Shown: positions 5,967-42,951 of the stretch, piece by piece
Layout: each line of letters starts with the position of its first letter
How positions within the stretch are numbered: the first letter of the stretch is position 1
Position numbers and translations under genes: made by a program
Origin: Candidatus Zhuqueibacterota bacterium
Lineage (GTDB): Bacteria > Zhuqueibacterota > Zhuqueibacteria > Oceanimicrobiales > Oceanimicrobiaceae
Direction of reading: 5' to 3'
DNA length: 64,000 nt
NCBI GenBank assembly: GCA_029262055.1
Contig: JAJDAD010000002.1
Coordinates: 66,791 to 130,790, forward strand
The notes under the pieces: model-generated
The model's input: only the letters and a program-made list of their open reading frames with translations
Database searches by the model: none
What the model was told of the DNA's origin: nothing

Positions 5967-8900
5967 GTGGCTTCTGAAAAGAACAAAGCAATCAGACTTA
6001 TCGAGTACTTGGGCGAGTTGGCAAAACTTCGATCCAAAATAGTTCGAGATATCGGTGCCTATCAAAAAATCCTGTGGCTTCATGAAATCCCAAAAGAGCA
6101 GAAGTATTGCTACACAAGAGTATGGGGGATTGAAGATGACATAGATGAAGATATCTGGATTGAAATAAAAAAAGATCAGGAGCCCCAATTACCGGCTATT
6201 CCCGACATTTGCGAAAAATGGGTTAATCATGATACTCTCTTTGATGCAGATAGCGTCCCTGAATTGTCTGGAAAAATTATTGAACAGGTTGAAGAACTAG
6301 ACAACGAAAGCGGAGAAACGATAGTTCTCAACAGAACAGTTCAACTTATTGATAATCCGCAGATTCAAGCTGAATGGGAAGAATATCTCCATGAGAAATG
6401 GACACCGTGGAAAGAATTGCATGCTAGGTGGCAAAGTATCCATAAAGTCTATTCTATACTCTTCAATATCTATCAAGATCAACTTAAATTGGGGGAAGAA
6501 TACGAACTTGCCGTCGGAATAGGTCTTCTCGCTTGGAAGACTCCAGGTGGTCACTTGGTGAGACGGCACTTAATTACAGCAAAAGCCTCTATCAGTTTTG
6601 AAGCACATCTTGGAAAATTCACCGTTCGGCCATCTACCGATGGATCTCAACTTGATGTTGAACTTGATATGCTCGACATTGAGGAACAACCGCCAAACAT
6701 CAAGAGAATCGTCGACGACGGTCTTAAGTCTGCGAATGACAATCTATGGGACCGTTCATCGACTAATATCCTACTTAAGGCTGTTACTAACTCACTGGCC
6801 GAGAAAGGCGAAGGTGATTACTTCCCTGAAAAAATTGTACCGACTTCCAACAATTCACCGGAAAAACCCGTAGTCGAATACGCGCCAGCCCTTTTTCTTA
6901 GAAAACGTTCAATACGCGGTCTGGAAACAACTCTCGAAGAGATAAAGAAGCAAGTGGAGAAAGACTCAATTATTCCACATGAGTTTCTTGATCTATGTGA
7001 ATTGGACGAGATTGATCGTGGGTCTGGCGAGAATTTAGGTGATGAAAAAAGTCAGGCTATCCCAGAATCCGATGGAAGAATTTATTTCCCACTTCCATCA
7101 AATGACCACCAACGTAGAATTATCGATACCCTGAATAATAATAAAGGTGTACTTGTCCAAGGGCCACCCGGAACAGGCAAATCACATACAATCACGAACC
7201 TCATCTGCCATCTTCTTGCCACCGGCAAACGCGTTCTCATTACGGCAAAAACACCAAGGGCTTTGCAGGTTCTGGAGAATATGTTGCCAGAAGCCATCAA
7301 GCCACTTTGCATAAATCTCCTTGGGAGTGGAATTCTGGAGCGCACTTCCTTGGAAGCAAGCGTAAGAAACATCCTGAGCAGACAGGATGGATGGAATGTA
7401 CGAGACGTCTCACAAAGAATTGATAATCTTGAACAACAGATCCATCGACTTCAAAAAGATAAAGCGGACACAGATTATAAGCTAAGGGCGCTTCGGGAAC
7501 AGGAAACATTCACGCATAATGTTGCAGAAGGAGCCTATTCTGGTACAGCAGCAAAGATTGCGATGCAATTACAAAAAGAATCAGCCCAACATTCTTGGTT
7601 TTCAGACAAGATTCCTACTGATCAAGTCTTTCCTTTGTCGATTGAGGAGGTCGATATTCTATGCAGTGCGCTAATAACTCTAAGTGCGGAGCAAGAAAAG
7701 GAGCTTGGTCTTTTGGTGCCTGCAAGCGATGACCTACCATCAACGGATACTCTGCAAAAGCTACTCGCGACAGAAAAGAGCAGTTTAAGCAAACTTTCAG
7801 CCAGCAGATCATTATTAACTTCCCCTGAAGGCAAGGCTGTTCAGCAGTCTAACCCCAAAATCGTGGCAGAGTTGGTTGACAGTATCAATTCGCTTAAAGC
7901 AGCGGTCGAGAGCATCAGAAAACGTCCGATGCCTTGGATAAAAAAGGCAGTGTTTGATATGCTCTCAGATAATGACATGCCTTGGAAAGAACTGTTGCAG
8001 TTATCCAAGAGAGAGAGGTCCAAGAAGGATTTAAAGGCGCACGCTCTTGATATTGATGGCGTCTCCATAAGAATTCCGAAAAATATTGATCGAGATAAGC
8101 TCTACCATGATGTCAGATCACTTTATCAGCATTTTGACAAGGGTGGTAAAATAGGACGGGGGCCGTTCAAACCCAAGATTGTGCAAGAGAATTACTATAT
8201 AATCAAAAATATACAGGTAGATGGACGTGAGTGTTCATCTAAAACGACTCTTAGAAAACTAAGGAGTTACTTGTATGTAACAAAAACCCTCAATAACATT
8301 TGGGCACTCTGGTCCGGGAAGGCTGAAAAAGAGCAAGATTCGCTGGTTCTGCAGATCGCGGAGATAGACGAACTGCATGAAGCACTGGGGAACATTGTTG
8401 CCTTGTACAATTTAGTGGAGCTGGCCAAGGAAAATATCAGGAGGATTAACGGCTTAAGTACTCCCGCCTGGCATGATCATGACAGTGAATCGTTACACAA
8501 TTTGCTTGACATATGTCAAGCAGCGACCGCCAGATTCGACCTTTTGGAGGCCCGAGAGAAACTAAAAAAGATTGAAAATCATCTATCGTCAATCATCAAT
8601 CAAGAAAAAGTTCATCCGATAGGTCATCAAATTCATTATGCTTTCCAAAAACGTGACATTGAGTTGTACAGAAAACTGTGCAAGGAAACTGACACCCTTT
8701 GCGAAGCAAAAGAGATTGTCCAAAGAAAGAATGCCGTTTTACAAAAGCTGGCGACCACTGCTCCGACCATTGCTGAAACAATAATAAGTACACCAGACAA
8801 GAATCTTTGGGTGCAGCGGTTGCGGAACATGGAAAAAGCATGGGCTTGGGCCAGAGGAAAAGCATGGCTTGAAGACTATATGGAAGCTGACAATTTCGAC

Positions 8901-10943
8901 AGCCTTGAGCGTAAATCAAATAGACTTGATGAGGACATCCGTAAGTATCTTGCAGAGCTCGCCGGTGATAAGGCTTGGAAGTTTTGTTTCTCGCGGATGA
9001 AAGAATCACACCGCAGACATTTGATTGGCTGGGAGCAGGCAATGAAAAAACTTGGCAAAGGTACCGGTAAACATGCGCCAAGACATCGTCGGACAGCACA
9101 ACAACATTTACATGAATGCCGTGATGCTGTTCCTGCATGGGTTATGCCACTACACAGAGTATATGAGACTGTTCGGCCAGAGCCTAGTCTATTCGACGTA
9201 ATAATTGTCGATGAGGCCTCCCAGTGTGGCCCAGAGGCGTTACCACTGATGTACCTTGCCAAACGTATCCTTGTCGTTGGGGATGACAAACAGATAAGTC
9301 CAGATGCCGTCGGCATTAACCGAGAGCACATGCATCGTCTGATGAGAGAATATCTTTTTGACTTTAAGCATGATGATTTATTCGATGTCGAGAACAGTCT
9401 TTTTGATCATGGACTAAGACGTTTCAATAATAGGATATCTTTGAGAGAACATTTTCGCTGTATGCCTGAGATCATTCGTTTCAGTAACGACCTTTGCTAC
9501 CATACAGGGCCGTTGATACCGCTGCGGCGGTATCCCCCAAACCGGATAGAGCCCCTAAAGGCCATCCATGTATCTTCAGGTTATCGAGAAGGTAAGTTTA
9601 ATAGAGTCATCAATAGGCCAGAGGCCGAAACTTTGGTTGAGAGTGTCCTGGCTTGTTGTAGAGATGAACGTTACAAGAACAAAACCATGGGGGTAATAGT
9701 TCTTCAGGGTGAAGCCCAAGCCTATATTATTGAGAATATGCTGCTTGACAAACTTGGTGCCGAGGAGATGGAGAGACGCCGGCTTGTGTGCGGCCACGCT
9801 TATAGTTTCCAAGGCGACGAAAGAGACGTGATTTTTCTGAGTATGGTCGCAGCCCCAAACGAAAGGATTGGTACCTTGACGAAGGCCGCTGACCAGCGCA
9901 GATTCAATGTTGCGGCAAGTCGAGCTAAAGACCAGATGTGCCTTTTTCATTCTGTTACCCAAAATGACCTTAGCGAGTCTTGCCTCCGTCGAAGATTGCT
10001 GGAATACTTTTATGATCCAGTTAGTCAGATTACCAAAGCATTAGGTGCGAATGCTGAGGAGTTACGGGAAATGGCACATAGAGCTGACAGGAAAATCGAA
10101 AGTCCGCCCTCCCCGTTTGACAGTTGGTTCGAAGTTGATGTCGCACTGCAGATCGCCACTAAAGGATACCGAGTCATTCCGCAGTATCCTTTTGCAGGCA
10201 AGCGAATTGACATGGTCATCGAGGGAAGTCAAACGCAATTAGCTGTTGAGTGTGACGGTGACTTTTGGCATGGTCCCGAGCAATACGAGAAGGACATGGA
10301 GCGCCAGCGAATGCTTGAAAGATGTGGTTGGCAGTTTTATAGGGTTCGTGAGTGTGAATATAATATCGATTCTGAAAATGCTCTTGAACCATTGTGGCAA
10401 CAATTAAACAAGGTGGGTATTGCACCAATATCAGGAAGTCCTAAGGAGGGCACGAAGCCATTTGATGGCGACATTGATAATACGGAGGAATCTACAAGTT
10501 TTTTTGAGAGTACTGCGTCACGTTCTCCACATAGCGGCGATAGCGGTAGTACGGTAAAGGCCGTAAATAACAACTCGAAGGACGATGAGAAGATAAGTGC
10601 AATCAAGAAGCATGAAGCGTCATCTTTAGAATCTGTCCATCCGACCGACATTCAAAATGCCTTGACTATTCAATCTGCAATAATTCGAGACACCATCATC
10701 GCAATATTAGAAGAAAGTCCAAACCATTCATGCATAAAAGAGAAATTGACCACAAATATTCTTCAAAAATGGAATATCAAAACGAGGAGTAAGCCAAGAG
10801 AAAGATTTTCCCGCAGAGTCAATAGAGCTGTTTCTTATTTAGACAGAGAAGGCTATGTTGAAATTTATAAAAGTAAAAATGTCAGAGTGAGACTTAGTGG
10901 AAGGCCATATCCGCGTCAAATGAGATTAAAAGACGTTGATTAA
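5967..10943 (+). CDS. Large SF1 (Upf1/DNA2-like, AAA_11/AAA_12) helicase with a C-terminal DUF559/Vsr-like PD-(D/E)xK endonuclease domain and an uncharacterised approximately 390-aa N-terminal region; GTG start
   Basis: Walker A GPPGTGKSHTITNL...GKRVLITAKT, motif II IIVDEASQ...VVGDDKQISP, and motifs V/VI VCGHAYSFQGDERDVIFLSMV are present. The C-terminus WFEVDVALQIA...VIPQYPFAGKRIDMVIEG...LAVECDGDFWHGPEQYEKDMERQRMLERCGWQFYRV is DUF559/Vsr-like. The gene body is visibly AT-rich compared with its flanks. Confidence 0.8.
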   Translation: MASEKNKAIRLIEYLGELAKLRSKIVRDIGAYQKILWLHEIPKEQKYCYTRVWGIEDDIDEDIWIEIKKDQEPQLPAIPDICEKWVNHDTLFDADSVPELSGKIIEQVEELDNESGETIVLNRTVQLIDNPQIQAEWEEYLHEKWTPWKELHARWQSIHKVYSILFNIYQDQLKLGEEYELAVGIGLLAWKTPGGHLVRRHLITAKASISFEAHLGKFTVRPSTDGSQLDVELDMLDIEEQPPNIKRIVDDGLKSANDNLWDRSSTNILLKAVTNSLAEKGEGDYFPEKIVPTSNNSPEKPVVEYAPALFLRKRSIRGLETTLEEIKKQVEKDSIIPHEFLDLCELDEIDRGSGENLGDEKSQAIPESDGRIYFPLPSNDHQRRIIDTLNNNKGVLVQGPPGTGKSHTITNLICHLLATGKRVLITAKTPRALQVLENMLPEAIKPLCINLLGSGILERTSLEASVRNILSRQDGWNVRDVSQRIDNLEQQIHRLQKDKADTDYKLRALREQETFTHNVAEGAYSGTAAKIAMQLQKESAQHSWFSDKIPTDQVFPLSIEEVDILCSALITLSAEQEKELGLLVPASDDLPSTDTLQKLLATEKSSLSKLSASRSLLTSPEGKAVQQSNPKIVAELVDSINSLKAAVESIRKRPMPWIKKAVFDMLSDNDMPWKELLQLSKRERSKKDLKAHALDIDGVSIRIPKNIDRDKLYHDVRSLYQHFDKGGKIGRGPFKPKIVQENYYIIKNIQVDGRECSSKTTLRKLRSYLYVTKTLNNIWALWSGKAEKEQDSLVLQIAEIDELHEALGNIVALYNLVELAKENIRRINGLSTPAWHDHDSESLHNLLDICQAATARFDLLEAREKLKKIENHLSSIINQEKVHPIGHQIHYAFQKRDIELYRKLCKETDTLCEAKEIVQRKNAVLQKLATTAPTIAETIISTPDKNLWVQRLRNMEKAWAWARGKAWLEDYMEADNFDSLERKSNRLDEDIRKYLAELAGDKAWKFCFSRMKESHRRHLIGWEQAMKKLGKGTGKHAPRHRRTAQQHLHECRDAVPAWVMPLHRVYETVRPEPSLFDVIIVDEASQCGPEALPLMYLAKRILVVGDDKQISPDAVGINREHMHRLMREYLFDFKHDDLFDVENSLFDHGLRRFNNRISLREHFRCMPEIIRFSNDLCYHTGPLIPLRRYPPNRIEPLKAIHVSSGYREGKFNRVINRPEAETLVESVLACCRDERYKNKTMGVIVLQGEAQAYIIENMLLDKLGAEEMERRRLVCGHAYSFQGDERDVIFLSMVAAPNERIGTLTKAADQRRFNVAASRAKDQMCLFHSVTQNDLSESCLRRRLLEYFYDPVSQITKALGANAEELREMAHRADRKIESPPSPFDSWFEVDVALQIATKGYRVIPQYPFAGKRIDMVIEGSQTQLAVECDGDFWHGPEQYEKDMERQRMLERCGWQFYRVRECEYNIDSENALEPLWQQLNKVGIAPISGSPKEGTKPFDGDIDNTEESTSFFESTASRSPHSGDSGSTVKAVNNNSKDDEKISAIKKHEASSLESVHPTDIQNALTIQSAIIRDTIIAILEESPNHSCIKEKLTTNILQKWNIKTRSKPRERFSRRVNRAVSYLDREGYVEIYKSKNVRVRLSGRPYPRQMRLKDVD

Positions 10944-35315: not shown

Positions 35316-36557
35316 ATGAATCAAGATACCCCCATCAAATATTCTGAAGACCTCAGAGAACTAATTGCCAGAATGCCAAAAACCGACCTGCACGTCCATT
35401 TGGATGGCAGCGTTCGCCTGCCGACTCTGATCGAAATTGCGCAGAAGGAGAATATCGATCTGCCCAGCTATACGGTCGAGGGCCTGAACGAACTCGTCTT
35501 CAAAGATGACTACGAAAACCTCGAGGAGTATCTGAAGACTTTTGGTTATTCTTGTGCCGTCATGCAAAAGCCGGAATATTTGGAGCGCATCGCTTACGAA
35601 ATGGCGCAGGACAATCAAAGCGAAGGTGTGCGCTACATGGAAGTCCGCTTTGCGCCGCAACTACACATCAACCAGATTATGGACATGAAGACCGTCATCA
35701 AGCATGTCGATGATGGCCTGGCGCGTGCCCAGCAGGAGTTCAACAACCGCGCGGAAGTCGTGTCCGGCAAGGAGCCGCCCTTCAATTACGGCATCATCAC
35801 ATCGGCCCTGCGCTCGTTTGGCCCGTACTCGGACTACTACGCCAAGTTCATGGACGTGCACGCTTACTCTGATACCAAGACCCTGTTCGCCCTCGGCTCC
35901 CTTGAGTTGGCGCAGGGAGCGGTCAGGGTTCGCGATGAGTTGGGTTTACCCATCGTCGCTTTTGACCTGGCAGGGGCGGAGAAAGGCAACCCGGCCAAGG
36001 ATCACTGGCAGGCGTTTCAGTTTGCGCATGAGAATTTTATGGCTAAGACCGTACACGCCGGCGAGGCCTACGGGCCACCTTCGATTTTTCAGGCCATCAC
36101 CGAGCTGCACGCGGACCGCATCGGACACGGTTACTACCTGTTCGATACCACCAAAGTTGATGACAAGAAAATCGCCGACAAGAAAAAATATGTAGAAGAC
36201 CTGGCCATGTACATCGCTGAGCATCGCGTGACCATCGAAGTCAACCTGACCAGCAATTTACAAACCAATCCCGCTCTCACCAGCCTCAAAGATCATTCCT
36301 TTAAAGAGATGGTCAAACATGATTTGAGCACCTCCATTTGTACCGACAATCGCACCGTCAGCAAGACCAGCGTCACCAACGAGATTATGCTCGCGCTGGC
36401 TAATTTCGAGCTGACGCCGAGGCGGTTGAAAAATATCATCGTTTACGGCTTCAAGCGATCTTTTTTCCCGGATAGCTACTCGCGCAAACGGGAGTACGTG
36501 CGGCGCTGTATCGATTTTTACGAAGAAACGGTGAAGGGGACTGCGCTCGAGGCGTAA
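35316..36557 (+). CDS. Adenosine/AMP deaminase-family protein
   Basis: N-terminal metal-binding signature DLHVHLDGSVR. The length of 413 aa fits the PF00962 family. The stop codon lies 20 bp upstream of the NACHT-DGR target gene. Confidence 0.75.
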   Translation: MNQDTPIKYSEDLRELIARMPKTDLHVHLDGSVRLPTLIEIAQKENIDLPSYTVEGLNELVFKDDYENLEEYLKTFGYSCAVMQKPEYLERIAYEMAQDNQSEGVRYMEVRFAPQLHINQIMDMKTVIKHVDDGLARAQQEFNNRAEVVSGKEPPFNYGIITSALRSFGPYSDYYAKFMDVHAYSDTKTLFALGSLELAQGAVRVRDELGLPIVAFDLAGAEKGNPAKDHWQAFQFAHENFMAKTVHAGEAYGPPSIFQAITELHADRIGHGYYLFDTTKVDDKKIADKKKYVEDLAMYIAEHRVTIEVNLTSNLQTNPALTSLKDHSFKEMVKHDLSTSICTDNRTVSKTSVTNEIMLALANFELTPRRLKNIIVYGFKRSFFPDSYSRKREYVRRCIDFYEETVKGTALEA

Positions 36558-36577: not shown

Positions 36578-39500
36578 ATGGGCAAGCTCTGCATAGGACT
36601 CTTTATCTTTGCGATTGTGTCAGTTCCTCTTTCCACGCTGCTTGCGAGGGAGGGAGGTCAGCAAGCCGACTCCTCTAAGCAACATCGTGCAAGCACAAGC
36701 GTGTCTGCGGATACTTCCTCGAAATCGCCCAAACCACTACCGGCAACTCTCCCTGAAAAATCAAAACAGAACTCAAGCGATGAAACGGACATGAATCAAA
36801 TGATGCCCTGGTTGATTGCCTTGGGTGCATTGGTGTTAGCAGTGTACCAGTACTATCGAAGAAGAACTGATACCAGAGACATGCTCCGTGATGAAATGAG
36901 GGTCAAAGACGAGTTCGAGACAAGTCAGGCGAAAGAGCGAGAGCTGACTGCGGAAGAGAGCTACCGTGCAGCCTTACACAAGGAACTCGGCAGCATAAAA
37001 ATTCTCGGTTCCCCGGACATTGACAGCCTGCCGGTAAGTCTGTTAGACTCGTTTGTCTCGCTTCGCATTTCCGAGACCTGGCGCAATGAATCGCGCTTCG
37101 ATCCCAGGAAGATGGAACGGCAACATGAGGATCGGGACCTTTCTCCGGAGGAGATCCTGCAGCGTGCTTTTCGGCAAGACCGGATGCTGGTGCTCATAGG
37201 CGAACCCGGCTCGGGCAAGACCACCCTCATGAAATTTTATGCCATGACCTGCCTGGAAGGTGGCGGCGGAAGCGCCCTCGGATTCAAGCAAGCTGTGCTG
37301 CCGCTGTACTTACCGTTGCGCGACCTCAAGTTTAAAGAAAAAGAGGATGGGATAGAATCTCTGCCGAATAACCTGGCGGCCAGGGCGGAAAAGCACGTTC
37401 TCGACATCGAGGCAAAGGAATTTTATGACTGGCTGCACAACCGGGAAACACTGGTTCTGCTGGATGGGTTGGACGAAATCAGCGATCTGAAAAAACGCAA
37501 GCAGGTCTGCAAGTGGATAGACAACACTTGCACCGGCCTTACGAAGGCCCGCTTTGTCGTGACCTCACGCTGGACCGGCTATCGCAAGGCAGAGGGCATT
37601 GAGCTGGAAACCGACCACCTGCGGGCGGACGTGCGTGACTTTTCTCGGGACCAGCAAGAGGAGTTTTTACGAAAATGGTTCCGGGCGGTATATCTGCGCG
37701 AGTATAAAGAGAGCGGAAAACCACCAGTCGATTGGCAGGAACGCCAACGTAAAAAGGCCGATCTGCGTGTCGACAAAATTCTTGGCTTCCTGAAAAGGGC
37801 CAGCAACCACAGCCTGCGCGAGCTTGGCGCCACACCAATGCTACTGCAGATCATGGCTATCCTTTGGAAAGAGCGCGACATTTTACCGGAAAGCCGTGCC
37901 TCTCTGTATGCCGCCGCACTAAACTACCTCCTGGTTTTTCGGGACAGGCGCCGAGATCTGGACCCGGTTCTGCCGGTAGACAAAGCTCGGCGCGTACTGT
38001 TGCCGACGGCCCTCTGGATGCAGGCGGAGGTTGGCAAAGATGAGGTGCCGAAAAATGATATGTACGACCAAATGCAACCGAAACTGAACAGCATGGAAGA
38101 GCAGGCTGACGCCGCCGTCTTCTGCCAAAACCTGGTTGACCGGGCTGGGCTGCTGGCAGAGTACGGCGAGGCCGATTATATCTTCCGGCACAAGTCATTT
38201 CGCGAGTATTTAGCCGGCGTGCAGCTCACCAAGGAGGAAAACAAGATAGAGTGGCTGCAGAAATTGATTGACCACTTTGGTGACGACTGGTGGGAAGAAC
38301 CTTTGCGGTTTTTTATAAATGAAGGCGACGACAAGCTGTTTGACGCTTTTATGGACTTATTTTTTACTTCCGAAATGAGTAAAGAGCTTGACCAAAAGCA
38401 GCAGGATTTGTTGCAGACCCTGGTGCGGGAGGCACCACAACGGGAACTAACCGCCCTTGCTCAGTGGCTGAATAAAAACGAAACCAATACCCAGCAGAGA
38501 AGATATATTCTGGAATGCCTTAAGACAATCGGAACTGCTGCAGCACTGGAGGAAGTCGAGAAGTACCTGGACAAGATGTTTACGAGACATGAAAAGCGTC
38601 TAAATAGACCGAGTGTGCAAGAGACTCATCAAGAGGCAAGCAGGCTGGATCCTAACTTCAAGTATGCCACTGAGATTCTTGCTGAATCAGCCAGGCGCAC
38701 GCCGGCGGTTGCCGCCAAAGGCCGGGCTCAAGTCGAGTCATCAGCAACTCTTGCTGATGACCTGTTTAGGAAATTGCCAGCTTCTTTCGTAAATGACCAC
38801 GAACAAAGCGCAGAGTATATCCTCATTCCGCCCGGCGAGTTCAAATTCTCCGTTTCAAAAAACATAGAGCCTGTACCTAATATTTACTTCGCTAAGTATC
38901 CTGTGACCAACAAGCGTTACCGCCGCTTTATCGCATACCTGAGCAACCAGCTTGACGAGCAAAGTGGCCGCCTGCCGACAGACCTGTTTTCTCAAAAGCT
39001 ATCTGAGTTTGCTGCGGGCATCAAGGACTTCACGGATTATCTGGGAACTGACCGAAATGGGTGGGCGAATAAACTACGGTCTGGGTACGATGACAACAAA
39101 CGTTTCAATCACGACGATCAACCCGTTGTCGCTGTAACCTGGTTCGCGGCGCGCGCCTACTGTTTCTGGCTGTCATGCCTGCAAGAGACTGAACTTGACC
39201 ATAAGCTGGAAGATGCAAACAAGCTGGCGAATAACTGTCGTTTGCCAACCGAGTTGGAGTGGGAGTGGGCGGCGGCCGGCCGCGAACGGGATGGCTCTTT
39301 GCGCGACTACCCGTGGCCCAAAGAAGAAGGTTCGCCAACGGACAAGCTGGCGAATTATGGTGGCACTGTTGGCGCCACTACGCCTGTAGGCCGCTACCTC
39401 GAGGGTGCAACTCCGGAAGGGTTGCTGGACATGGCAGGCAACGTTCTTGAGTGGTCGGAAAGCTGGCGCGATGAAGGCAGGAGCCGCCGGGCGCTTCGTG

Positions 39501-39613
39501 GGGGTTCGTGGGGCATTGCTACAGACTTCCTGCGGTGCTCGGCGCGCAACAGCCTCTATCCCGGCGACAGGGACGGCAATGTTGGGTTTCGAGTTGTTCG
39601 GCCCCAGTCCTAA
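36578..39613 (+). CDS. DGR target protein: membrane-anchored NACHT (STAND) NTPase with a C-terminal FGE-sulfatase/C-type-lectin-fold domain that carries the variable region
   Basis: Two N-terminal hydrophobic segments (MGKLCIGLFIFAIVSVPLSTLLA; MMPWLIALGALVLAVYQYY). NACHT Walker A LVLIGEPGSGKTTLMKF and Walker B LVLLDGLDEI. The C-terminus YPVTNKRYRRFIAY...VTWFAARAYCFW...LEWEWAAAG...LRGGSWGIATDFLRCSARNSLYPGDRDGNVGFRVV is FGE-sulfatase-like with an RGGSW-type DGR VR motif. Confidence 0.85.
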   Translation: MGKLCIGLFIFAIVSVPLSTLLAREGGQQADSSKQHRASTSVSADTSSKSPKPLPATLPEKSKQNSSDETDMNQMMPWLIALGALVLAVYQYYRRRTDTRDMLRDEMRVKDEFETSQAKERELTAEESYRAALHKELGSIKILGSPDIDSLPVSLLDSFVSLRISETWRNESRFDPRKMERQHEDRDLSPEEILQRAFRQDRMLVLIGEPGSGKTTLMKFYAMTCLEGGGGSALGFKQAVLPLYLPLRDLKFKEKEDGIESLPNNLAARAEKHVLDIEAKEFYDWLHNRETLVLLDGLDEISDLKKRKQVCKWIDNTCTGLTKARFVVTSRWTGYRKAEGIELETDHLRADVRDFSRDQQEEFLRKWFRAVYLREYKESGKPPVDWQERQRKKADLRVDKILGFLKRASNHSLRELGATPMLLQIMAILWKERDILPESRASLYAAALNYLLVFRDRRRDLDPVLPVDKARRVLLPTALWMQAEVGKDEVPKNDMYDQMQPKLNSMEEQADAAVFCQNLVDRAGLLAEYGEADYIFRHKSFREYLAGVQLTKEENKIEWLQKLIDHFGDDWWEEPLRFFINEGDDKLFDAFMDLFFTSEMSKELDQKQQDLLQTLVREAPQRELTALAQWLNKNETNTQQRRYILECLKTIGTAAALEEVEKYLDKMFTRHEKRLNRPSVQETHQEASRLDPNFKYATEILAESARRTPAVAAKGRAQVESSATLADDLFRKLPASFVNDHEQSAEYILIPPGEFKFSVSKNIEPVPNIYFAKYPVTNKRYRRFIAYLSNQLDEQSGRLPTDLFSQKLSEFAAGIKDFTDYLGTDRNGWANKLRSGYDDNKRFNHDDQPVVAVTWFAARAYCFWLSCLQETELDHKLEDANKLANNCRLPTELEWEWAAAGRERDGSLRDYPWPKEEGSPTDKLANYGGTVGATTPVGRYLEGATPEGLLDMAGNVLEWSESWRDEGRSRRALRGGSWGIATDFLRCSARNSLYPGDRDGNVGFRVVRPQS
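39487..39606 (+). repeat. DGR variable region (VR), 120 bp, the 3' end of the NACHT-FGE gene
   Basis: Identical to the TR at 40076-40195 except for about 16 positions. Every difference corresponds to an adenine in the TR. Confidence 0.9.
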
Positions 39614-39687
39614 GTTGTTGTAACTCTGTTTTCTGTCTGTCTGTTGTTCTGATCAAATGGTTTTAAAAAAAATGAGGAGGAAGCAAC

Positions 39688-40047
39688 ATGCCTAAAACCG
39701 AGATGCTCGTTATCAAAAAAGGGTATGATTTCTCGAAATGGCTATTAAATCATACCGGCAAATTTCCAAAGAGCTATCGTTTCAGTGTAGCAGCCAAGCT
39801 CGAAAACGGTATTCTTGATTTCATAGAGGCGACGACTGTAGCCAATATGAGAAGGGATAAGATATCATTCTTAACAAAGGCAGACGAGGCGCTTGCCCGG
39901 CTACGATTGTTGTTCCGGCTTAGTTACGAAATGCGGTTTATCAACCTCAAGTCATACGAATACGGAAGCCGGCAAATGGCGGAACTAGGACGGTTACTCG
40001 GCGGCTGGTTGAAGAATCCCGGTGCCGGTTTCGCAAGAACTAATTGA
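39688..40047 (+). CDS. avd: DGR accessory variability determinant (Avd; four-helix-bundle protein)
   Basis: At 119 aa the sequence MPKTEMLVIKKGYDFSKWLLNHTGKFPKSYRFSVAAKLENGILDFIEA... matches the Avd / 23S-rRNA-IVS protein family. It sits between the target gene and the TR, as in canonical DGRs. The RBS is gaggagg. Confidence 0.8.
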   Translation: MPKTEMLVIKKGYDFSKWLLNHTGKFPKSYRFSVAAKLENGILDFIEATTVANMRRDKISFLTKADEALARLRLLFRLSYEMRFINLKSYEYGSRQMAELGRLLGGWLKNPGAGFARTN

Positions 40048-40075
40048 TGAGAATAATAGGACAGGAGTCACGGTG

Positions 40076-40195
40076 ACCGGGCGCTTCGTGGGGGTTCGTG
40101 GAACAATACTACAGACAACCTGCGGTGCTCGGCGCGCAACAACAACAATCCCGACAACAGGAACAACAATGTTGGGTTTCGAGTTGTTCGGCCCC
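40076..40195 (+). repeat. DGR template repeat (TR), 120 bp
   Basis: ccgggcgcttcgtgggggttcgtggAAcAAtActacagacAAcctg...cgcgcaacAaCAaCaAtcccgAcAacaggAacAAcaatgttgggtttcgagttgttcggcccca. The Asn (AAC) codons sit at the positions that vary in the VR. Confidence 0.9.
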
Positions 40196-40338
40196 AATCA
40201 TGCCCAACCCATGCATCCTTTATGGTGCCCTACCTGATGCCGGATGGTTTCACGGAACCCCGGACTGCTGTACGGGCATGACATGCGGCTCTTGCATCCT
40301 GGGTTTGCTCGCTGCTGAGCCAGCCCGAACATAAACCA

Positions 40339-40382
40339 GGGTGGGTTTCTTTAGTAGGAAGTTTCGGACAAGAAACCCACCC
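40339..40382 (+). other. 13-bp perfect stem-loop (gggtgggtttctt...aagaaacccaccc) between the TR and the RT start codon
   Basis: A perfect inverted repeat 14 nt upstream of the RT ATG. It may be part of the DGR RNA spacer structure. Confidence 0.5.
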
Positions 40383-40395
40383 ATAATTTCGTCAG

Positions 40396-41433
40396 ATGAA
40401 GACCCATAAGCATTTATTCGACAAGATAGTAGCATTTGAGAACTTGCTTGCGGCGGCAAATAAGGCAGCGCTTGGAAAGCGGGAAAAACCATACGTTATC
40501 GAGTTCTTTGCGAAACTGGAAGAGAACCTGTTCCGGCTTCAATCAGAACTTGAACACAAAACTTACTATCCAGGCAGGTACTCAACCTTTCAAATTTACG
40601 AACCTAAACCCAGAATGATCAGCGCTGCCCCATTCCGCGATCGGATTGTGCATCACGCACTAATAAATATTATTGGCACTGGCTTGGAACGCAGTTTCAT
40701 TTTTGATACTTATTCGAATCGACTAGGAAAGGGTACGCACAAAGCTATTCGGCGTTACCAGACTTTCTTGCGGCGAAATAGTTACGTTTTGAAATGTGAT
40801 ATTAAGAAGTACTTCCCATCAATTGATCATGCTATTTTGAAATGTTTACTGAAGAAACGTATTTCTTGTGAGGCCACTCTTTGGCTAATCAACAAGATCA
40901 TCGACTTCAGTAATCCGCAAGATCCCGTTGATGATTACTTCCCGGGCGACACGCTCTTTACGCCTCAAGACCGTAGAAAAGGGCTACCGATCGGAAATTT
41001 GACGAGCCAGTTTTTCGCAAACCTCTACTTGAATCAGCTAGACCATTTTGTCAAGGAGGAGTTGAGGTGCAGAGCGTATGTCAGGTACGTAGACGATTTT
41101 GTTCTCTTTGGTGACTCGAAGCAATGCCTACGGGAATGGCGAGATTCCATAGCTATATTCTTATCTGAGTATCGTTTGAAATTGCACCCAACAAGATGCC
41201 AGATCTACCCTGCTCCGGTTGGTGGAAGATTTCTCGGACAAGTAATTTGGCGAACACATCGTCTCCTACCAGGACAAAATGTCCACCGATTCAAAAGCCG
41301 AGTGCAATCCTGGAGGACCAATCCACCCGAAAATATTGACCAACGCCTTGCTAGTTGGGTAGGTCATGCCTCGCAGGCAAATACTTTTTGCTTATTGAAA
41401 GCACAGGGATTAAGTTTAAAATCAATTGAATAA
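40396..41433 (+). CDS. DGR reverse transcriptase (group-II-intron-like RT)
   Basis: RT motifs: PFRDRIVHHALINII (motifs 1/2), the YxDD box in RAYVRYVDDFVLFGDS, and a thumb region. It sits immediately downstream of the TR. Confidence 0.88.
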   Translation: MKTHKHLFDKIVAFENLLAAANKAALGKREKPYVIEFFAKLEENLFRLQSELEHKTYYPGRYSTFQIYEPKPRMISAAPFRDRIVHHALINIIGTGLERSFIFDTYSNRLGKGTHKAIRRYQTFLRRNSYVLKCDIKKYFPSIDHAILKCLLKKRISCEATLWLINKIIDFSNPQDPVDDYFPGDTLFTPQDRRKGLPIGNLTSQFFANLYLNQLDHFVKEELRCRAYVRYVDDFVLFGDSKQCLREWRDSIAIFLSEYRLKLHPTRCQIYPAPVGGRFLGQVIWRTHRLLPGQNVHRFKSRVQSWRTNPPENIDQRLASWVGHASQANTFCLLKAQGLSLKSIE

Positions 41434-41562
41434 AAGTCCGTGCCGCAACTTTTTTCAATGAGCTACGTTTCAAAAGTCATTATCTCCGTTTTAATAACTT
41501 TAGAAAAGATAAAATCTTAGGCGTTCAGTTCTAACTCCTGAAAAAACACGAGGAGCGGTACC

Positions 41563-42951
41563 ATGTTGCGACAAATGAGATTATCCCTGGTGGTCGCTTG
41601 TGCAATTCTTGCGACGGCGGCGGTCTTGCAGGCGGCAGAAGACGGGCAGAGCGGCAAGACTTACTCTTTGCAGGAGTGCATCGATCTTGCTTTGAAAAAC
41701 AATTCTTCCCTCAAAACCGCGGTTTATGAAGTTGACCGCGCCGGAGCCAACGTCAAGGGTTCCTACTCCAATGTTCTGCCGACCATCACGTCGTCCTTCA
41801 ATTCCAGCCGCACCTTTCGCGGCGAAAGCGTGGACACCCGGGATGTTCAGGCTGTCGATCCAACAACCGGGCAGGTGGTAATCGATCGCCAGGATATTAC
41901 CTCTCCCAGCCGGCAGTTTAATTTCCACCAGGTACAGATTCGCTACAATCAACGCCTGTTCGATTTTGGCCGAAGCTGGAATCTTGTCAAGCAGGCAAAA
42001 ACCTCGTTCGAGGCCAGCTCGCAGAATCTGGTTTTTGCCCGGCACAACATGCACTCAAACGTCAAGCTGCGCTACTTTGAGCTATTAAAGGCACAAAAAC
42101 TGGAACAGGAGTTCAAGCTGGCGGTGGAGCGCAGCAAGGAACAATTGCAGCGCACACAGAGCATGTATGAGATTGGCTCCGTGGCGCAGATCGATGTCTA
42201 CCGCCAGGAAGTGACCCTTGGTTCCGATGAGGTCAATCTGATCACCCAAAGCAACGTGGTGGAGATCGCCAGGGGCAACCTCAACATCGAAGTGGGAAGG
42301 GATCCCGACAACGACATCGCGATCGCGGATTTGGAAATTGATATGTCTCCGCCCCGGCTCAGCCTGACGGAGGCGATCACCGTTGCATACGAAAACAGCC
42401 CGGAATTGAAACGCTTTGAGTTTGACATGAAGAGCGCCAACTACGGCCGTAAAGCAGCCCGGGGGCGTTACTTCCCGTCGTTCGCAGTTGGAATCACCTA
42501 TACCAAAAACAATGAGCTTGCCGACCGGGTCTATGGCTCCCTGGACCAGAACTTCTCGGTGGGCGTTGGCGCGCAAGTCGATTTCAATATTTTCAACGGC
42601 CTCTCCGATGCTGCGGAAGTCAGTCGCCAGACGGCCAATTACTCCATCGCCAACGAGAATTGGATCAATACCAAGCGCTGGAAAGAGCTCGAAGTGAAAC
42701 AAGCCTACCTGAACGTGAAGGCTTTCTCAAATATCGCGCAAATCAATGAACGCAATGTTCGTTCGGCGGAAGAGGACTTTCGCCTGGCACAGGAGCGCTA
42801 CCGGGTTGGCGCCGGCACGTCCCTGGAAGTGACCGATTCACAGGTCAATCTCACCCGTGCCCGCGTGCAACTGGTTGCATCCAAGTATGATGCCATGATC
42901 GCCAGGGCGCAACTTGAGGCAGCCATGGGAGTGATCGAAAACCCGGAATAA
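41563..42951 (+). CDS. TolC-family outer membrane efflux protein
   Basis: Signal peptide, then LQECIDLALKNNSSLKTA and two OEP repeats. Confidence 0.8.
   Translation: MLRQMRLSLVVACAILATAAVLQAAEDGQSGKTYSLQECIDLALKNNSSLKTAVYEVDRAGANVKGSYSNVLPTITSSFNSSRTFRGESVDTRDVQAVDPTTGQVVIDRQDITSPSRQFNFHQVQIRYNQRLFDFGRSWNLVKQAKTSFEASSQNLVFARHNMHSNVKLRYFELLKAQKLEQEFKLAVERSKEQLQRTQSMYEIGSVAQIDVYRQEVTLGSDEVNLITQSNVVEIARGNLNIEVGRDPDNDIAIADLEIDMSPPRLSLTEAITVAYENSPELKRFEFDMKSANYGRKAARGRYFPSFAVGITYTKNNELADRVYGSLDQNFSVGVGAQVDFNIFNGLSDAAEVSRQTANYSIANENWINTKRWKELEVKQAYLNVKAFSNIAQINERNVRSAEEDFRLAQERYRVGAGTSLEVTDSQVNLTRARVQLVASKYDAMIARAQLEAAMGVIENPE

Follow-up and report, generated by a model that had tools for sequence, protein, structure and literature searches.

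A stretch of 64,000 nucleotides of Candidatus Zhuqueibacterota bacterium (GenBank assembly GCA_029262055.1, contig JAJDAD010000002.1, positions 66,791 to 130,790 of the forward strand), referred to here as the window, contains a diversity-generating retroelement (DGR) between positions 36578 and 41433. The best explanation of this locus, held with little doubt, is a complete and apparently functional DGR of the bacterial chromosome, which diversifies a target protein that resembles the NOD-like receptors (NLRs). The element is formed by the target gene, with a variable region (VR) at its 3' end, the accessory gene avd, a template repeat (TR), and the gene of a reverse transcriptase (RT), and its coordinates are listed in Table 1. 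These parts and their integrity, the restriction of the VR–TR differences to adenines, and the covariation of the associated RNA can all be read directly from the sequence. The locus had been recognized as a DGR in an earlier sequence-only reading, and this identification stands, given that all the defining parts that can be tested in the sequence are present and intact, with the exception of an inverted repeat, which is not universal in these elements.

Divergence of the template and variable repeats

A single long direct repeat is found between positions 36000 and 42000 of the window, the two copies of which, the VR and the TR, span 123 nt each, with an offset of 590 nt and 87% identity. The 120-bp limits given in the sequence-only reading were in register for the VR (39487-39606), while the TR (40076-40195) was displaced by one base, with the true TR starting at 40077. 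A base-by-base comparison at this offset recovers 16 mismatches in the 123 positions, and the TR base is an adenine in all 16 cases, substituted in the VR by G (ten cases), T (five) or C (one). The earlier claim that no difference occurs at a non-adenine position is thus borne out by the tabulation, and the count of about 16 mismatches, all on adenine, is correct for the 123 nt, although the 120 nt delimited originally hold only 15, with the sixteenth (39607/40197) lying beyond them. Given the 31 adenines of the TR, the probability of all 16 mismatches falling on this base by chance is 6.3e-12 (hypergeometric). The remaining 107 positions of the two repeats are 100% identical, which argues for recent homing.

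In the reading frame of the target, 15 of the mismatches occupy the first or second codon position, and the 11 codons concerned comprise seven AAC, two AAT, one ACT and one GAC. Of the 31 TR adenines, 28 are found in these same positions, with 11 AAC or AAT codons in all. The asparagine codons of the TR had been reported to stand opposite the variable codons of the VR, and the peptide strings quoted in support of this are exact. No stop codon can be reached by the substitution of TR adenines, and the 29 adenines located upstream of the junction would permit 2.9e17 variants of the DNA and 6.6e15 variants of the protein. A search of the window with a pattern that accepts any base at the adenine positions recovers these two copies alone, and hence a single VR. 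A scan of the JGI metagenomes with the TR/VR pattern (N at the adenine positions) gave no match, so that the organism is absent from that collection.

The extent of the divergence can be compared with that of related elements, based on 160 related RT loci (numbered here with the prefix L) fetched from genomes and metagenomes, most of which carry adenine-specific TR/VR pairs of their own, with 117 distinct pairs being counted. In the window, the VR departs from the TR at 15 of the 29 adenines that precede the junction (52%), in agreement with both the mean share of 0.52-0.53 in these 117 pairs and the 52% misincorporation at adenines by bRT, the Bordetella RT (PMC7826257), and this agreement was counted in favor of the DGR reading. 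A clade-specific bias from A to G, hinted at by the window (10 of 16 mismatches) and by locus L001, was also considered, and was rejected when it vanished on the pooling of the VRs. The bases substituted in 26 VRs of the RT sub-clade closest to the window are T (51%), G (40%) and C (9%), and those of the 91 other VRs are 47%, 42% and 12%, respectively.

The accessory protein and the reverse transcriptase

The order of the genes (target, avd, TR, RT) and the YVDD box of the RT, both of which had been noted in the earlier reading, were confirmed. The Avd protein scores above the cut-offs of both NCBIfam NF033474 DivGenRetAVD (98.8 bits, with a cut-off of 80) and Pfam bAvd PF22296 (74.4 bits, with a cut-off of 40), and is 82% identical to the Avd proteins of L001 and L015.

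The RT matches chain A of PDB 8ub7 (328 aa, labelled only 'Reverse transcriptase') with E = 5.9e-61, in comparison with E = 3.9e-13 for the best match to the RT of a group II intron. This chain is taken here to be the Bordetella bRT, based on the agreement of the alignment with the residue numbering published for that enzyme. The identity with the brt product of Bordetella phage BPP-1 is 39.7%, over 96% of the length. The motifs PKPR70-73, D135, IGNLTSQ199-205 and YVDD231-234 are all retained, with the segment IGNLTSQ carrying the signature of the DGR RTs, [I/V/L]GxxxSQ (PMC7826257), in place of QGxxxSP. The alignment also equates R73 and I199 of the window RT with R74 and I181 of bRT, the residues shown to promote adenine mutagenesis (PMC7826257). 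The NCBIfam and PADLOC models of group II intron, retron and defense-associated RTs (DRTs) all scored far under their cut-offs against this protein (120 versus 300 bits, for example), and a group II intron, retron or DRT identity was ruled out on these scores. The sequence comparisons thus support the assignment of the RT to the DGR lineage, far closer to 8ub7 than to any other class of RT.

A weak sigma-70-like site, TTCGCA-16-AATAAT, is present at 40030-40057, within the 3' end of avd and 20 nt upstream of the TR. Based on its match to the consensus only, this site might provide for a separate TR-spacer-RT transcript.

The diversified target protein

The target combines a central NACHT NTPase domain with a C-terminal domain of the type found in the formylglycine-generating enzyme (FGE), which adopts the C-type lectin (CLec) fold and displays the VR, with both domains scoring above their Pfam gathering thresholds. 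The residues G208, G211, S212, G213, K214 and T215 of the Walker A region are invariant in 38 homologues. The AlphaFold2 model of the target (38 homologues) has a mean pLDDT of 80.2 and a pTM of 0.70, and is composed of the NACHT module and helical domains, followed by an alpha/beta domain at the C-terminus. In the Foldseek searches, the NACHT part matched NLRC4, NOD2 and NLRP3 over approximately 580-640 columns (E = 1e-11 to 1e-9), and the C-terminal domain matched FGE, PvdO, EgtB, PorK and TvpA (TM = 0.56 for TvpA). The sequence matches of the latter domain are similar, including PDB 2y3c (TvpA of Treponema, E = 3e-8), PvdO, EgtB and PorK.

The N-terminus begins with a hydrophobic helix (residues 3-21), followed by a disordered linker rich in Ser, Lys and Pro (residues 21-73, approximately). 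A long helix then extends over residues 76-122, with a hydrophobic start (MMPWLIALGALVLAVYQYY, residues 75-92) that is followed by the residues RRR, according to both the AlphaFold2 model and the hydropathy profile. By a rule of thumb, the target is probably a NACHT protein tethered to the membrane, with a cytoplasmic variable CLec domain, given that the NTPase needs cytosolic nucleotide, and that the stretch between it and the CLec domain contains no hydrophobic segment. By analogy, the variable domain would probably act as the sensor of a ligand, most likely a molecule derived from an invader.

This architecture is shared by a large family, with at least 1129 homologues at E <= 1e-10 among the scored candidates. 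The NACHT and FGE-sulfatase domains are both present in all of the best 120 homologues, which are 44-60% identical to the target. In the alignment of 38 members, the columns that correspond to the TR-adenine codons have an entropy of approximately 3 bits, and the intervening scaffold (RGGSW, LRCSAR, P, GFRV) hardly varies. This confinement of the hypervariability to the TR-adenine columns indicates that diversification at these sites is a property of the family as a whole. The N-termini of the homologues vary, and include transmembrane segments, a domain of the KIKVLVASPSDV type, TIR and helix-turn-helix domains, and a TWLHISDLHL motif, which is presumably metallophosphoesterase-like. In four of the related loci (L005, L008, L099 and L100), each TR is accompanied by two targets of the NACHT/NTPase-CLec type, which differ in their N-terminal modules (KIKVLVASPSDV-type, transmembrane or TWLHISDLHL).

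Members of this family are named 'SUMF1/EgtB/PvdO family nonheme iron enzyme' by NCBI and 'formylglycine-generating enzyme' by JGI. These enzymatic names are probably misleading, given that the C-terminal domain is a binding scaffold, diversified by a DGR and carried on a NACHT protein. The likeness of the target to FGE and EgtB is one of fold only, with all the equivalog models scoring far below their cut-offs, and the segment that holds the catalytic cysteines of FGE presumably corresponds to the hypervariable codons of the VR. An enzymatic role for this domain is thus unlikely.

The RNA around the template repeat

For the analysis of the RNA of the element, 18 loci belonging to the closest sub-clade were aligned, starting 45 nt before the TR and ending at the RT start codon, and RNAalifold identified five helices in this alignment. 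In the named structure of 42 pairs, 93.5% of the cells are paired, in comparison with 37-49% when the partners are slid out of place. Compensatory double changes occur in 26 of the 42 pairs, and none of 500 shuffles reached any of the observed measures.

The first of these helices is a stop duplex, formed by the spacer and a strand that precedes the TR, and compensatory changes are found at five of its seven pairs, with a homologous duplex being observed in the relatives. This duplex was singled out by the minimum free energy (MFE) fold and by the 18-locus alignment, but not by RNAduplex when applied to the window sequence alone. The predicted template:primer duplex, formed by the 3' end of the TR and a second strand of the spacer, is 99% paired in the 18-locus alignment, and compensatory changes occur in L002 and L019. 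The spacer also holds the stem-loops H2, H3 and H4, and a conserved motif, yCUGAUGCCGG, is found directly 5' of H2. No Rfam family passed its threshold in either the window or the spacer, even at E <= 1, and this includes the group II intron and retron RNAs.

The cryo-EM structure of the bRT-Avd-RNA complex has shown that nucleotides 53-56 of the spacer pair with nucleotides 118-121 of the TR, with A56 priming on G117 of the TR, and that an avd:spacer duplex, the 'cPRT stop', follows directly after the primer duplex (bioRxiv 10.1101/2023.10.23.563531). The layout of the window RNA appears to mirror this architecture, with the equivalence of the individual elements being drawn by position and analogy. 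By analogy with A56 of the Bordetella spacer, A40281 is the predicted priming nucleotide, with the synthesis of the complementary DNA (cDNA) starting opposite positions 40196-40197 of the TR. The similarity between the VR and the TR stops 2 nt inside the predicted primer duplex, which is consistent with this priming site.

The recipient end of the variable region

The last mismatch of the pair, A40197 in the TR and G39607 in the VR, differs from the other 15, and this is where the earlier attribution of all the mismatches to adenine mutagenesis does not hold. The same difference, with A in the TR and G in the VR, recurs in 28 of the 28 sub-clade pairs that reach the junction (window, L001, L003, L004, two in L005, L007, two in L008, L015, L086-L091 and L093-L102). 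The junction always reads C/G-AATC in the TR and C/G-AGTC in the VR (CCAATC and CCAGTC in the window). The G is independent of the reading frame, being part of a CAG codon (Gln) in the window and an AGT codon (Ser) in L005, and this constancy across reading frames points to a mark of donor and recipient at the nucleotide level, of the type known as IMH/IMH* (initiation of mutagenic homing). The comparison of these sequences identifies A40197/G39607 as a fixed mark of this type, rather than a product of random adenine mutagenesis. The neighboring TR adenine, at 40196, is never changed, and a constant stretch of 30 nt separates the last variable codon from the junction. The mark precedes the predicted primer duplex by 1 nt, and the G would extend this duplex by a G-C pair with C40282 of the spacer, and its role in directionality is proposed by analogy.

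Other RT clades have fixed junction differences of their own, such as AGGAC in the VR versus AGCAC or AGTAC in the TR, and a recurrent motif, ..ACTAACCCTT.., is found directly after the VR in some of them (Bacteroidota, Saprospiraceae and cyanobacteria). The loci with this motif or with junction differences of their own include L010, L029, L036, L037, L047, L055, L131 and L135-L136, among others. Motifs specific to the flank of the VR may thus be general in the DGRs, as well as specific to each clade.

A second feature of the recipient end is a tandem array, in which the VRs of the sub-clade are followed, in all 28 cases, by four to six units of approximately 8 nt that share a YCTG(A) core. 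In most cases, it starts approximately 15-20 nt past the CAGTC of the junction, and occasionally closer, although the distance is 55-70 nt in three VRs. A regular expression for four YCTG cores at a spacing of 7-11 nt recovered 13 sites in 785 kb (both strands), nine of them directly after sub-clade VRs, in comparison with approximately one site in the shuffled sequences, and in an enlarged set, 26 of the 26 sub-clade VRs detected automatically were array-positive. No array was found after the TRs, nor after approximately 90 VRs of other RT clades, with the exception of one possible match (L160). Remote VRs with no avd downstream also carry the array, and it is absent from L009, the target of which is also a P-loop NTPase-FGE protein, but which belongs to another RT clade and has a different layout. 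The array therefore travels with the type of RT, Avd and RNA, and not with avd itself or the class of target, and this distribution of the sequences fits a role in retrohoming. No mention of such a tandem array was found in the DGR literature, in a search that was not exhaustive, and it looks undescribed.

In the Bordetella phage, the recipient elements are GC14, the IMH, and a stem-loop (PMC12875486), and an inverted repeat 3' of the IMH is present in only 34% of the DGRs (PMC5758913). It is tentatively proposed, as a possibility rather than an expectation, that the phased array and the fixed junction G label the recipient site and attract the RT-Avd-RNA-cDNA particle for retrohoming, taking the place of the Bordetella stem-loop in this sub-clade. 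If true, DGRs would have a second way to recognize their target, and one that is sequence-specific. The known inverted repeat is lacking in 66% of the elements. The array and the A/G mark are, in any case, concrete candidates for the cis-elements of the poorly understood step of cDNA integration.

Proposed mechanism

In the proposed mechanism, the avd-TR-spacer-RT transcript would fold by the pairing of 40059-40069 with 40287-40299, and of the 3' end of the TR (40198-40205) with GGGCATGA at 40274-40281. The RT-Avd complex would then prime the cDNA from A40281 in the spacer, and copy the TR leftwards, misincorporating at approximately half of the template adenines. The cDNA would replace the VR from 39487 to approximately 39606, potentially rewriting up to 16 codons, with approximately 6.6e15 possible proteins and no stop codons. 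The direction of the transfer, from the TR to the VR and never the opposite, would be set by features found only at the VR, which are G39607, as the fixed mark, and probably also the YCTG(A) array at 39625-39655. The priming site in this scheme, like the role of the array, the topology of the target, and its putative function as an immune sensor, would follow the Bordetella phage system by homology.

Table 1. Coordinates of the features of the element, numbered from the first nucleotide of the window.
Feature	Position	Strand	Description
DGR target gene	36578-39613	+	1011 aa; open reading frame with an AGGAGG-like ribosome-binding site; NLR-like
NACHT NTPase domain	37181-37687	+	Residues 202-370; PF05729, 59.7 bits versus 26.7, E = 4e-16; Walker A GEPGSGKT
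FGE-sulfatase / C-type-lectin-fold domain	38813-39601	+	Residues 746-1008; PF03781, 129 bits, E = 3e-37; displays the VR
VR	39487-39609	+	Diversified core 39512-39576; constant 3' part 39577-39609 (IMH-like), with terminal fixed G39607
Tandem YCTG(A) array (TCTGtttTCTGTCTGTCTGttgtTCTGatc)	39625-39655	+	Between the target stop codon and avd; VR-linked, specific to the RT sub-clade
avd, accessory variability determinant	39688-40047	+	119 aa; NF033474, PF22296
Stop duplex ('cPRT-stop'-like)	40059-40069 (GGACAGGAGTC) with 40287-40299	+	MFE fold and RNAalifold; formed by the spacer and a strand 5' of the TR
TR	40077-40199	+	31 adenines, of which 29 precede the junction (A40196, A40197); 11 AAY codons in the VR frame
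Primer duplex (predicted template:primer)	40198-40205 (TCATGCCC, TR side) with 40274-40281 (GGGCATGA, spacer)	+	RNAalifold
Spacer (Sp)	40200-40395	+	Holds H2, the primer strand, the stop-duplex strand, H3 and H4
Stem-loop H2	40240-40263	+	RNAalifold
Stem-loop H3	40303-40324	+	RNAalifold
Stem-loop H4	40340-40381	+	RNAalifold
DGR reverse transcriptase	40396-41433	+	345 aa; RVT_1; similarity to PDB 8ub7 and BPP-1 brt

Activity of the element and alternative explanations

A number of observations weigh against the interpretation of the locus as a functional DGR with a target involved in defense. No effector domain is recognizable in the target by Pfam, hydropathy or the AlphaFold2 model, and the PADLOC models recovered no match to this protein, so that a role in defense is indicated by its architecture alone. 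No stem-loop was found after the IMH-like region, where the structure of 39575-39690 is not significant (z = -0.31). Three contigs that encode the identical RT, from the sequencing runs SRR15505513, SRR15505514 and SRR15505515, have 100% identity with the window across 7-11 kb, with the VR included, and give no sign of ongoing diversification. Finally, neither the priming nucleotide nor the membrane orientation of the target is a result, both being drawn from analogies and rules of thumb.

The most tenable of the alternatives, although still unlikely, is that the diversified protein is a variable signaling or regulatory receptor, or a protein of ligand binding or adhesion, and not an immune sensor. 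The lack of an identifiable effector domain, an adjacent effector gene or a PADLOC match is in line with this possibility, as is the location of the locus among housekeeping genes, rather than in a defense island, and a regulatory role has been proposed for the DGR targets of cyanobacteria (PMC7517822). This alternative is countered by the structural alignment of the NACHT module with NLRC4, NOD2 and NLRP3 over about 600 columns, by the TIR or other effector-type domains at the N-terminus of some of the homologues, and by the placement of the NACHT-CLec targets of DGRs among the conflict systems (PMC10907252, PMC7159879).

The element may also be an intact DGR that is currently silent, or a relic, with the VR derived from a homing event in the past and now a fixed allele, although this is considered rather improbable. 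The three samples show one dominant VR allele, which is the same in three independent assemblies. No relatives above 70% RT identity were recovered in the scans of genomes and metagenomes for a strain-level comparison of the VRs. The accession numbers of the three runs are adjacent, however, and the samples may be near-replicates, and consensus assemblies hide the minor variants of the VR. In addition, the three open reading frames are intact, the catalytic and signature residues of the RT are retained, and the non-adenine positions of the repeats are all identical, where a long-inactive pair would have drifted, which argues against an old relic.

The remaining alternative, an ordinary duplication or gene-conversion tract beside an RT of a group II intron, a retron or a DRT, to which sub-threshold NCBIfam and PADLOC matches would point, is extremely improbable, in view of the distance of those scores from the cut-offs, the disparity between 8ub7 (E = 6e-61) and the best group II intron match (E = 4e-13), the lack of an Rfam family above threshold, the adenine-only mismatches (P = 6e-12), and the presence of Avd.

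Comparison with known systems

The DGR of the window closely resembles that of Bordetella phage BPP-1 (mtd-avd-TR-brt), with an identical gene order, an Avd protein, the same RT signature and fidelity residues, a VR at the C-terminus of a C-type-lectin fold, and an RNA with TR:spacer primer and upstream:spacer stop duplexes. The two elements differ in that the window element is chromosomal, whereas that of BPP-1 is found in a phage, and in their targets, that is, a NACHT protein of 1011 aa with an FGE-type CLec domain in the window, and a tail-fiber protein in BPP-1. The window also lacks the GC14 and the stem-loop after the IMH, with the YCTG(A) array in their place, and its TR/VR similarity ends at the primer duplex, whereas that of BPP-1 continues through an IMH* of 21 bp. 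The distance from the priming nucleotide to the stop duplex is 5 nt in the window and 2 nt in BPP-1.

In the architecture of its target, the element resembles the cellular DGRs of clade 5D, in which a NACHT/STAND NTPase combined with a DGR-diversified FGE-type CLec domain has been described as a group of 'putative antigen sensors' (Doré et al. 2024, PNAS, PMC10907252). The NACHT-CLec targets of DGRs had been predicted earlier in the surveys of conflict systems by Kaur and Aravind (PMC7159879). The shared features include the central NACHT module, the VR within the C-terminal FGE-type CLec domain, an N-terminal extension that is sometimes transmembrane, and a chromosomal, non-viral location, with two targets being frequent in the relatives of the window element. 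Unlike the clade 5D elements, however, the window DGR belongs to an environmental bacterium, and has a single target, with no neighboring effector or adaptor genes.

The TvpA DGR of Treponema denticola also has its VR in an FGE-type C-type-lectin fold (E = 3e-8, TM 0.56), although TvpA itself, a small lipoprotein of the cell surface, lacks an NTPase module. The NLR-like antiviral proteins of bacteria, Avs and bNACHT, share with the target the fold of NLRC4, NOD2 and NLRP3, and a layout with the STAND NTPase in the center and the sensor domain at the C-terminus. In this case, the difference lies in the sensor, which is a CLec domain rewritten by a DGR in the window, rather than TPR, LRR or WD repeats, and in the lack of a recognizable N-terminal effector. 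The target is matched by no PADLOC model, and the NCBIfam models of the antiphage NACHT proteins EruA and DS8 scored far below their cut-offs against it.

Elements of the type found in the window, with NACHT-CLec targets, have already been described, and the locus is a new example, rather than a new system. It adds one well-preserved and fully annotatable case of targeted hypermutation aimed at an NLR-like sensor domain, leaving the picture of the class unchanged, and this class may represent a prokaryotic immune receptor with a pre-generated repertoire. The features that go beyond the available literature, that is, the fixed A/G mark, the YCTG(A) array linked to the VR, and the RNA model supported by covariation, are sequence features with hypothetical functions. 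The comparative set contributes a covariation-supported model of the DGR RNA in a non-phage clade, covered by no Rfam family, and with a predicted priming site. It is also of value for annotation, through the correction of enzymatic names that are probably misleading in a family of over 1100 proteins.

Genomic context and mobility of the cassette

The neighbors of the element encode a TolC-like outer-membrane protein and an adenosine deaminase, with 20 nt between the end of the deaminase gene and the start of the target gene. Further neighbors include polyprenyl synthase, PtsI, MetK, AhcY, PabB, UvrD, LacZ and AcrB. No phage structural or integrase genes were found among the larger neighboring open reading frames scanned, and the window contains no rRNA or tRNA genes. 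The chromosomal, non-phage setting noted in the earlier reading is thus real, with neighbors of the housekeeping type, but it is not unusual, as had been suggested, because approximately 70-90% of DGRs are chromosomal (PMC5758913), which makes this location the norm.

The GC content of the RT end of the cassette (40001-42000) is 0.47, in comparison with 0.53-0.55 in the flanks. The closest RTs are found in metagenome-assembled genomes of the Calditrichota, Acidobacteriota, Ignavibacteriota, Chlorobiota and KSB1. No synteny of the flanks is shared with the related loci L001-L015, and the four parts of the cassette (target, avd, TR and RT) remain linked in at least five phyla. The reduced GC content, the unshared flanks and the linkage of the parts point to horizontal transfer at the level of the cassette, and, from these sequence features, the four-part cassette looks like a horizontally moving unit.

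A second gene of the window may be a separate defense gene. This gene (5967-10943, + strand) is located in a stretch of low GC content (0.43-0.45), and encodes a helicase of 1658 aa (AAA_11/AAA_12) that includes a nuclease domain, REase_MTES_1575, and matches the PADLOC candidate-defense models PDC-S37, MkoA/MkoC (Mokosh) and Hhe.

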